A stretch of 64,000 nucleotides of DNA from a virus: positions 32,001 to 96,000 of IMG/VR virus record IMGVR_UViG_3300030328_002122; one strand, 5' to 3'. Below the pieces are notes generated by a model. The model did no database searches and had not been told where the DNA came from. It was given only the letters and a program-made list of their open reading frames with translations. This document shows positions 22,670 through 23,882 of the stretch, piece after piece (position 1 is the stretch's first letter; each line of letters starts with the position of its first letter). A program made the position numbers and the translations under genes.

Positions 22670-23488
22670 ATGACACAACTTATATCACCTAAAAAATTTA
22701 CACACGCAGTTGGCCTTTTGAGGTCATTTTTTTTATCTAAAGGTTTTGAAGAAGTACACACACAAAACCGACTATCAATACTAGCGGCTTGCGAAGATCC
22801 AGAAAATGTCGCAACGTATAATTACATGGGAAACATATGGCCCCTGCCACAAACTGGACAAATGTGGTTAGAACATGAACTATTAACACGCCCCTCTAGT
22901 AAGGGGTTTTTTTGTGTTTCCACTAGCTATAGACAAGAACCAAATGCAATTCCTGGCAGACATGAAACAATATTTCCAATGTTTGAGTTTGAGATGCCTG
23001 GCGATATTAATGATCTCAAAAATATGGAAATAGAATTATGTAAATACATGGGATTTCCAGAATTAGAGATACAGACATACAATGAATGGAGTGACCAGTT
23101 TAATGTAAAAGAACTGGAAAACGAACACGAAGAAATTATTGATTGGGGTATGATTACAAGTTTTCCAGAGTTTACGTCACCATTTTGGAATATGTCAAGA
23201 TATGAAGATGGAGTTACCAGTAAAAAGATTGATGTAATTCTAAATGGTATGGAAACAATAGGTTCTGCTGAAAGAAGTACAGACAAAGATCAAATGAAAA
23301 ATACATTTGAAACAATATCAAATGGTGAGTATGCAGAATTATTATACAAACTATTTGGAAAAGAAAGAGTACAAAAAGAGTTAGATGAATTTTTGAAATA
23401 TGATTTCTTCCCAAGAGTTGGGGGTGGAATTGGTATGACAAGAATGATCTCTGCGTTAGATAGATTAGAAATGGGATTAGCGGCATGA
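22670..23488 (+). CDS. Class IIb aminoacyl-tRNA-synthetase-like protein (Asn/Asp/Lys family), catalytic domain only
   Basis: Motif 1 LRSFF..KGFEEVHT; motif 2 SYRQE...RH..IFPMFEFE; DVILNG.ETIGSAER; motif 3 PRVGGGIGMTR; 272 aa leaves no room for the OB-fold anticodon domain. Confidence 0.85.
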   Translation: MTQLISPKKFTHAVGLLRSFFLSKGFEEVHTQNRLSILAACEDPENVATYNYMGNIWPLPQTGQMWLEHELLTRPSSKGFFCVSTSYRQEPNAIPGRHETIFPMFEFEMPGDINDLKNMEIELCKYMGFPELEIQTYNEWSDQFNVKELENEHEEIIDWGMITSFPEFTSPFWNMSRYEDGVTSKKIDVILNGMETIGSAERSTDKDQMKNTFETISNGEYAELLYKLFGKERVQKELDEFLKYDFFPRVGGGIGMTRMISALDRLEMGLAA

Positions 23489-23553
23489 ACAATGAAGAAT
23501 ACAAAAAATATGTAAACCTATTGTGTAAGATATGGAACATTAAAAATGAGTAA
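23485..23553 (+). CDS. Possible 22-aa peptide MNNEEYKKYVNLLCKIWNIKNE
   Basis: ATGA overlap with the upstream stop and 8-nt overlap with the downstream start. Confidence 0.35.
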   Translation: MNNEEYKKYVNLLCKIWNIKNE

Positions 23554-23788
23554 TGAAGAAAATCAAATTGAAGATTTTAAAGATCAAGATAAAGCTGCTT
23601 TAAGAAGACAACTTGCTCAACTTAGAATGGCAAGATATACATTAGTTGCTATGGGAGTATTTACTTTTTCAATGTTTTTCGTATCAGTTGAACGAGTTAA
23701 TGCTTTATCCGATATTTCAAATTTATTTTATCTCTCTGGTGCTGGAATTGTTGGAGCTTATATGGGATTTAATTCAAAGAGGTTTTAA
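23546..23788 (+). CDS. Small two-TM membrane protein
   Basis: Two hydrophobic segments (YTLVAMGVFTFSMFFV; LFYLSGAGIVGAYMGF) and a charged N-terminus. Confidence 0.6.
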   Translation: MSNEENQIEDFKDQDKAALRRQLAQLRMARYTLVAMGVFTFSMFFVSVERVNALSDISNLFYLSGAGIVGAYMGFNSKRF

Positions 23789-23793
23789 AATAG

Positions 23794-23882
23794 TTTGAGG
23801 TGGTGGAATTGGTAGACACGCACAACTGTTTATTGTGTGCAAATATTTTTGCGTGAAGGTTCGAGCCCTTCCCTCAAAGCCA
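23794..23882 (+). tRNA. tRNA with anticodon GUU (Asn), atypical class II body with long variable arm and encoded CCA
   Basis: Acceptor TTTGAGG/CCTCAAA-G-CCA; D arm GTG-GAATTGGTAGA-CAC; anticodon stem CACAA/TTGTG with loop CTGTTTA; V arm GCAAA-TATT-TTTGC; T arm GAAGG-TTCGAGC-CCTTC. Confidence 0.9.

Follow-up and report, generated by a model that had tools for sequence, protein, structure and literature searches.

A synthetase core and a tRNA-like RNA between gp23 and gp3

The window analyzed here, a stretch of 64,000 nucleotides (positions 32,001 to 96,000 of IMG/VR record IMGVR_UViG_3300030328_002122), comes from a marine T4-like myophage whose genome measures 145 kb and is 95% complete. Its structural genes run in the order scaffold gp22, capsid gp23, an insert, gp3, UvsY and UvsW. 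The insert is bordered on the left by the major capsid protein gene gp23 (21243..22595, + strand; Pfam Gp23, E 1.2e-143) and on the right by the gene of a gp3-like tail completion protein (23906..24523, + strand; PHROG 45, syntenic with gp3 of P-SSM7). Inside this gp23-gp3 interval lie the two elements that are the subject of this work: a gene for a stand-alone class IIb aminoacyl-tRNA synthetase core of 272 amino acids (22670..23488, + strand; PHROG 29758, of unknown function), hereafter the enzyme, and an 89-nt tRNA-like RNA (23794..23882, + strand), which ARAGORN calls as tRNA-Asn(gtt) and the Rfam tRNA model matches at 46 bits. The initial annotation of this locus had described a class II core lacking an OB fold together with a GUU tRNA with a long-arm body, and had proposed that the two form a private pair supplying Asn-tRNA for translation. 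The anatomy was confirmed by Pfam, an AlphaFold2 (AF2) model, ARAGORN and Rfam; the proposed function is weighed below.

The enzyme and the RNA are reciprocally linked

From the enzyme side, we assembled 84 loci (80 from IMG/VR, those of phages P-SSM2, P-SSM5 and P-SSM7, and the window), of which 81 were informative. The RNA was found downstream on the same strand in 80 of these 81, and three of the four RNA-less loci among the 84 end no more than 60 nt from the enzyme gene. In the reverse test, a DNA pattern for the RNA alone recovered 70 true cloverleaves. The enzyme lay 7 to 174 nt upstream of the RNA in 66 of them; three others were cut short, and a single locus (L266) had no enzyme. The linkage is reciprocal, and the co-occurrence of enzyme and GUU tRNA across genomes, on which the initial annotation had staked its pairing, held in both directions.

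In a maximum-likelihood tree, all tRNA-linked enzymes grouped in one clade (83 rows; SH-like approximate likelihood ratio test, 95) with one loss, in L046. The RNA partner was gained once, and then kept, in one monophyletic branch of marine T4-like phages. Among relatives outside this clade, a downstream RNA was not found. In the huge phages LR756501 and LR756508, with enzymes that are 44 to 47% identical, there was no tRNA within 6 kb of the enzyme gene, and elsewhere in the two genomes the RNA family model matched ordinary Leu, Ser and Asn tRNAs only.

The enzyme is a class IIb core with an AsnRS-like pocket

The enzyme matched the Pfam family tRNA-synt_2 (class II D, K and N synthetases; PF00152) at E 3.7e-14, with residues 12 to 263 aligned to profile positions 27 to 292 of 308. 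Because the match begins at residue 12 and profile position 27, an N-terminal OB fold would not fit ahead of it. The core starts at about residue 5, and the OB-fold anticodon-binding domain that belongs to an asparaginyl-tRNA synthetase (AsnRS) is missing; the OB-fold family was likewise absent from the Pfam hits of longer homologues, which carry PyrD, PyrF or other domains. The AF2 model had a predicted local distance difference test score of 94.8, and its residues 3 to 268 align with AsnRS catalytic domains (PDB 8TC8, 8H53, 2XTI, and 1X54). When structures were ranked against this model, AsnRS came out on top (Z 25.9 to 26.8; root-mean-square deviation [rmsd], 2.1 to 2.6), followed by archaeal and eukaryotic AspRS (Z about 25) and, further down, archaeal asparagine synthetase A (Z 23.8), GenX (Z 23.6) and LysRS (Z 23.4). 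AsnRS was also the first match in a family profile search (E 5.8e-13). The likeness to AsnRS extends to the fold, motifs 2 and 3 and the pocket signatures, whereas the enzyme differs in having no OB domain, in an identity of only about 20%, and in its recurrent fusion to, or neighborhood with, PyrD, PyrE and PyrF.

At the two sites that discriminate Asn from Asp, the enzyme reads QTGQMWLE (AsnRS, QSSQLYLE; AspRS, QSPQLYKQ) and FEFE (AsnRS, VEAE; AspRS, LDIE). Judged from these signatures, the pocket is of the AsnRS rather than the AspRS type (Leu-Glu for Lys-Gln; Glu for Asp), in support of the link to Asn proposed in the initial annotation. The class II core residues are conserved (R88, R97-H98, E195, R202, G251-G255, and R258), as are the arginines of motifs 2 and 3 and the metal-binding acids (each >90%), along with the GGGIG sequence. 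Given this pocket and these motifs, the enzyme should form an acyl-adenylate from an Asn-shaped acid.

The enzyme nevertheless scored far below every NCBIfam synthetase cut-off. For the AsnRS model TIGR00457, it reached 18.4 bits against a cut-off of 342.6; the archaeal asparagine synthetase A model NF005055 gave a weak match, 21.9 against 389 bits; and the window protein had no match at E ≤ 0.01 to the EpmA models TIGR00462 and NF006828. It belongs to a large family of its own, with at least 8,000 homologous proteins at E ≤ 0.001 and relatives encoded on 597 IMG/VR stretches, and matches in an ESM Atlas search were limited to this family. A comparison of the tRNA-linked and the tRNA-less clades gave 87 positions that are the same in both and conserved to at least 90%, while W140, I162 and the N-terminus are the only features specific to the tRNA-linked enzymes. 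With so many shared and so few clade-specific positions, the two groups most likely catalyze the same reaction.

Archaeal AS-AR and bacterial AsnA (PDB 3P8T, 3REU, and 3REX; Z 23.3 to 23.8) provide the best functional analogy, being metabolic ATP-dependent ligases built on a core of similar size with no tRNA-binding domain. The phage enzyme could itself be of this type, i.e., an auxiliary metabolic gene product for the synthesis of free Asn out of Asp, ATP and ammonia, with the tRNA as a separate Asn-related helper. It consists of the core alone, its size is close to that of AS-AR, the structural fit covers 240 residues at an rmsd of 2.7, and the weak NCBIfam match points the same way. We consider this improbable, however. 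That match lies far under its cut-off, AsnRS and AspRS both score higher by structure (AsnRS by 2 to 3 Z units), and AS-AR was not among the sequence-profile matches. The enzyme is accompanied in genomes by pyrimidine enzymes and a tRNA instead of Asn metabolism genes, and Asn synthesis would leave the recurrent PyrD and PyrF fusions described below unexplained.

The RNA keeps Asn identity marks rather than decoding marks

The RNA at 23794-23882 is the sole tRNA in the 145-kb genome. It has a tRNA-Leu-type body with a Leu-type D arm, a U1-A72 pair, G73, an encoded CCA and a 5-bp variable-arm hairpin, and its anticodon loop, CUGUUUA, presents the anticodon GUU followed by U37. The family model built for this RNA scored it at 93.4 bits. 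In an alignment of 60 distinct homologues, 99.9% of the cells pair and 17 of the 20 pairs show compensatory changes, a pattern that puts the predicted cloverleaf far beyond chance. U1-A72, G73 and G34-U35-U36 are invariant across the family. By contrast, the 117 sequences vary at position 37 (103 U, 11 A and 3 C; a pyrimidine in 91%) and at position 33 (103 U, 7 C, 6 A and 1 G). The length of the variable region spans 6 to 44 nt, leaving almost no arm in some members, and total lengths are 78 to 116 nt. CCA is encoded in 88 of the 117 sequences; it is not encoded in the P-SSM2-like branch of Prochlorococcus phages, nor in the tRNA genes of their hosts, a distribution which suggests that a working 3' end of the RNA matters.

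The RNA thus combines parts of two tRNA types. Like a canonical tRNA-Asn, it is a GUU cloverleaf with U1-A72 and G73, but the family does not hold to U33, to a purine at 37 (A, bearing N6-threonylcarbamoyladenosine [t6A]) or to a short variable loop. The host tRNA-Asn is ordinary in these respects (72 nt, loop CUGUUAA with A37) and carries the same identity marks. From tRNA-Leu, the RNA has the D arm and, in many members, the long variable arm, but not A73 or a Leu anticodon, as all members have G73 and GUU. The best host matches to the RNA family model were host tRNA-Leu genes (up to 60 bits), and the D-arm sequence of members such as L014 is that of Prochlorococcus tRNA-Leu(UAA), from which the window RNA differs by one compensated D-stem pair. 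Identity for SerRS, LeuRS or TyrRS was considered and rejected on known identity rules, since Leu and Tyr identity would be at odds with G73, and Ser identity would call for a conserved variable arm, which the family lacks. Among the long variable arms (25 to 44 nt) of many members, a conserved GCAA..TATTTA was seen at the hairpin tip and on the 3' side (alignment columns 47-88).

Nondiscriminating AspRS (ND-AspRS) reads the anticodon and G73, and the amidotransferase GatCAB reads U1-A72. These are exactly the marks that the RNA keeps, while those needed by the ribosome are not kept. A fixed GUU next to variable positions 33 and 37 fits recognition by a protein better than decoding.

These features bear on the private pair of the initial annotation, in which a minimal, anticodon-blind AsnRS would charge its own tRNA(GUU) with Asn for translation, either as a direct Asn-tRNA route in hosts without AsnRS or as a replacement for cleaved host tRNA-Asn. 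Much is consistent with such a pair: an AsnRS-type pocket with all adenylation residues, AsnRS as the best relative by structure and by profile, an acceptor end with the Asn marks read by class IIb motif 2, the strict linkage, the encoded CCA in most members, the absence of any other tRNA from the genome, and picocyanobacterial hosts in which AsnRS was not found (three Prochlorococcus genomes and one marine Synechococcus genome). However, U37 excludes t6A and position 33 varies, which argues against Asn-tRNA supply for translation, and recognition through the variable arm, the proposed handle, is not supported, given how widely the length of that arm ranges. Nor does the enzyme look like a dedicated charging enzyme: its family also occurs where there is no tRNA, the tRNA-linked clade has almost no adaptive residues of its own, and decoding leaves no place for the fusions to, and neighborhoods with, PyrD, PyrE and PyrF. 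The simple private pair for translation is weakened by these results, and we now hold it to be unlikely; use of the RNA outside the ribosome, a fallback in the same annotation, is the option that the evidence favors.

Pyrimidine genes accompany the enzyme in both clades

Outside the tRNA-linked clade, PyrD-enzyme fusions were found in at least 10 protein clusters (53 to 56% identity), on giant-virus-like contigs that carry RING, TBP, IF4E and TK genes. In another tRNA-less locus, an enzyme-PyrF fusion adjoins PyrE and PyrD, and elsewhere a stand-alone enzyme gene lies 14 nt ahead of a PyrE-PyrF-PyrD triple fusion, in a neighborhood that also holds PurA and PurB. Of 69 tRNA-less metagenome loci, 11 have pyr genes flanking the enzyme. 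Within the tRNA-linked clade, the gene order is PnrA-like, enzyme, RNA, methyltransferase-like, PyrF and PyrD in L393, and enzyme, RNA, PyrE and PurM in L399, while in four loci (L030, L036, L037, and L047) the enzyme is preceded, at a distance of 69 nt, by a PyrD-like gene. The pyrimidine association, on the orotate branch, spans both clades. No homologues of PyrB or PyrC were found in 2.1 Mb around 300 fetched loci.

The source phage of the window also has a PyrD-like gene, about 80 kb away and outside the window (G000 136559-137293, equal to L102:2559-3293), and the PyrD-like proteins directly upstream of the enzyme in the four loci above are its homologues. The encoded product is a trimmed, class 1A dihydroorotate dehydrogenase-like protein of 244 amino acids that keeps the catalytic N-x-S-C-P-N motif, the flavin mononucleotide lysine, GGxSG and GGGI. 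Matches to this type were found in only 2 of 50,697 phage records. The gene was also considered for a Dus-like role in tRNA modification, which was rejected, since the class 1A dehydrogenase motif is kept and the protein matches DHO_dh, not Dus.

Among cultured phages, the PyrE type of L399 has matches only in P-SSM2, P-SSM5 and P-SSM7, which are also the three with the enzyme. The pairing of HisZ with HisG is a precedent for a synthetase core working with a phosphoribosyltransferase, and the enzyme could thus be a HisZ-like regulatory subunit that senses an end product by binding it and controls a phosphoribosyltransferase such as PyrE or, alternatively, an EpmA/GenX-like protein aminoacylase. 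The co-occurrence with PyrE in the three phages and the structural fit of GenX are in keeping with this. We regard both versions as very improbable, as the window protein has no match to the EpmA models, the catalytic arginines and metal-binding acids are conserved to an extent unlike a purely regulatory paralogue, and many members have PyrD but no PyrE nearby. Cyanophage pyrE is a recognized auxiliary gene of deep, low-light populations (PMC9983427).

A candidate route to dihydroorotate with a captive RNA

The partners of the enzyme thus include PyrD, PyrE and PyrF, but not PyrB or PyrC, and this makes an ATP-dependent ligase for dihydroorotate or its immediate precursor the most likely identity. 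The reading we favor, at a probability of about 0.38, is that it is an undescribed ATP-dependent enzyme that feeds dihydroorotate to PyrD, with the captive, non-decoding, Asn-identity tRNA serving as a carrier. The enzyme belongs to a virus-borne family of stand-alone class IIb cores that keep all adenylate-forming residues and the AsnRS-type pocket, and it would act in viral orotate-branch modules with PyrD, PyrE and PyrF, never with PyrB or PyrC. There it may convert an Asp- or Asn-shaped substrate to dihydroorotate or its immediate precursor, much as AsnA and archaeal AS-AR probably turned a synthetase core into a metabolic ligase. The AsnRS-like pocket may be explained by the structure of L-dihydroorotate, which is itself an asparagine closed into a ring. 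Candidate chemistries would include adenylation of the beta-carboxyl of carbamoyl-aspartate, in the manner of AsnA and AS-AR, a route from Asn and CO2, or another reaction. PyrB (aspartate carbamoyltransferase) and PyrC (dihydroorotase) normally fill the pathway position left empty upstream of PyrD in the viral modules, and from this gene context we infer that the enzyme works in their place. It does so, if at all, with a different fold, a class II synthetase core rather than the amidohydrolase or ornithine carbamoyltransferase folds, and PyrC and PyrB do not use ATP.

For the RNA, which the marine T4-like branch acquired once and then kept, the same reading holds that host ND-AspRS and GatCAB would load it, and that the loaded RNA would carry an Asx/Asn moiety to the enzyme, off the ribosome. 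A host-loaded carrier is favored because the RNA keeps the marks of ND-AspRS and GatCAB, not those of decoding, and because the picocyanobacterial hosts tested lack AsnRS. In comparison with bacterial tRNA-Asn and its ND-AspRS/GatCAB transamidosome, the phage RNA shares U1-A72, G73 and G34-U35-U36, and it differs by its Leu-type D arm, long variable arm, U37, unfixed position 33 and greater length. The proposed use of an aminoacyl-tRNA off the ribosome has parallels in tRNA-dependent metabolite synthesis, i.e., the Glu-tRNA of the C5 heme pathway, the cyclodipeptide synthases, which are synthetase-core look-alikes without an anticodon domain, and VlmL/VlmA. These systems borrow ordinary cellular tRNAs, whereas the phage has a dedicated, non-canonical tRNA encoded beside the enzyme that would putatively use it.

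A stronger form of the carrier proposal would have pyrimidine synthesis entered by way of the RNA itself: Asn would be built on the phage RNA by ND-AspRS and GatCAB, and the core would then use ATP and a C1/N donor to produce dihydroorotate. Such an entry would bypass carbamoyl-phosphate synthetase, aspartate transcarbamoylase and dihydroorotase, together with their feedback control, and in giant viruses the same enzyme, fused to PyrD, would use a free substrate or host tRNA. We regard this version as speculative and rather unlikely.

It is also conceivable, though somewhat doubtful, that the enzyme is linked to pyrimidines while the tRNA is neither substrate nor carrier and is kept for another reason. 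It could serve as an element for RNase P/Z processing or stability of the operon transcript, as a handle by which a mobile cassette recombines, or in decoding AAY codons, with an odd loop that resists a host anticodon nuclease. In support of such a role, the presence of the tRNA makes no difference to the conserved enzyme residues, the enzymes linked to it are acidic, and the cassette sits at different genome places, between gp23 and gp3 in the window and P-SSM7 and near a primase gene in P-SSM2 and P-SSM5. There are documented cases of phage tRNAs whose altered anticodon loops evade nucleases (PMC10264068), and tRNA genes mark non-syntenic regions in cyanophages (PMC3037559), both of which support this alternative. 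On the other hand, the pair has been kept in about 150 loci, and only one loss was seen in each direction, while the ordinary phage tRNA genes around it are gained and lost. Neither a cis element nor a recombination handle needs an invariant U1-A72, G73, GUU and 3' CCA, and in an AAY decoder U33 and a purine at 37 would be expected, which are not kept.

Several observations weigh against the carrier-fed ligase that we favor. Its tRNA-less relatives imply that the RNA is no obligatory co-substrate, unless they use host tRNA-Asn. The tRNA-linked enzymes have a lower isoelectric point than the others (4.7 versus 5.6) and no clade-specific RNA-binding residues. Conservation of the canonical alpha-amino-binding residues E42 and Q61 agrees better with the usual activation of the Asn alpha-carboxyl than with a substrate flipped as in AsnA. 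In addition, AsnB-like genes were present in three of the four host genomes tested, and free Asn may be available there. Outside viruses, a pattern scan with the bacterial homologue P0232 found no cellular homologues, and two related groundwater gammaproteobacterial metagenome-assembled genomes were reached via the neighboring LpxB gene, one of them with an enzyme homologue (183 bits). In this genome, whose homologue is divergent and whose completeness is not established, no match to pyrB, pyrC, pyrD, pyrE or pyrF was found, a further point against a role next to PyrD. The second, also of unestablished completeness, gave a near-cut-off pyrB match and two weak pyrD-family matches, with no pyrC, pyrE or pyrF. 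The pyrimidine link is supported here for viruses but not for bacteria.

The host of the source phage introduces a similar difficulty. Its gp23 has its nearest cultured relatives in the Methylophilales phage Melnitz (73%) and in Pelagibacter (SAR11) phages (67 to 69%), and is more distant from cyanophages (64%); for this reason the host is uncertain. It may be a streamlined heterotroph, although the closest cultured homologues of the enzyme are those of Prochlorococcus phages.

We found no paper on the function of the enzyme, which Sullivan 2010 lists only as 'tRNA ligase', and nothing relevant on giant-virus PyrD fusions, on synthetase paralogues with tRNA-like partners, or on an ATP-dependent dihydroorotase. 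Yet the module is abundant, with its homologues spread over hundreds of ocean virus contigs, and it is present in the model cyanophages P-SSM2, P-SSM5 and P-SSM7, where the gene has carried the 'tRNA ligase' label since 2005-2010 (in P-SSM2 and P-SSM7, it is annotated in these words). If the enzyme makes dihydroorotate, this would represent a new, non-homologous pyrimidine route in phages and giant viruses and an added function in the repertoire of synthetase paralogues. If the RNA is a carrier, it would be a naturally occurring tRNA devoted to metabolism, with its gene next to that of its enzyme. If, instead, the enzyme charges the RNA, the two would form a natural minimal orthogonal pair, of interest to genetic-code engineering.

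Layout of the insert and neighboring genes

Between gp23 and the ribosome-binding site of the enzyme lies a terminator-like hairpin followed by a T run (22627..22656, + strand), with an 8-bp stem, five G-C pairs and a T7 tail. Ahead of the gp3-like gene, the sequence reads TATAAATA at 23895-23902. The spacing of about 300 nt between enzyme and tRNA in the window is real but atypical. It is due to an insertion (23489-23793) that is limited to the source genome and missing in the relatives L006 and L008, where the enzyme is 93% identical and the tRNA begins 8 nt past the stop codon. The insertion splits an otherwise contiguous pair and replaces the last codons of the enzyme. It contains an 80-aa open reading frame, hydrophobic in appearance (23546..23788, + strand), for which Pfam and PHROG searches gave no family match.

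Some further features were noted around the pair in other genomes. In P-SSM2 (L002, AY939844.2), GenBank places a tRNA-Asn at 164094-164179, inside a coding sequence and apparently misplaced, while ARAGORN finds the tRNA at positions 4813-4900 of the locus (record positions about 162082-162169), directly after the 'tRNA ligase' gene and matching the locus-tag order. ARAGORN also predicted tmRNA genes near the enzyme-tRNA pair in L023, L033, L041, L068 and L082/L083, with tags such as ANDNYAPEMAMAA. In L393, a T4-like contig, the gene directly upstream of the enzyme (L393:4868-5905) encodes a PnrA/Bmp-like, nucleoside-binding substrate-binding protein of the ATP-binding cassette type. Finally, in the interval 6940-11320 of LR756501 (L004), a 735-kb uncultured phage, the enzyme homologue is followed by an ATP-grasp protein resembling RimK and by a protein of 669 aa that contains a phosphoribosyltransferase domain.

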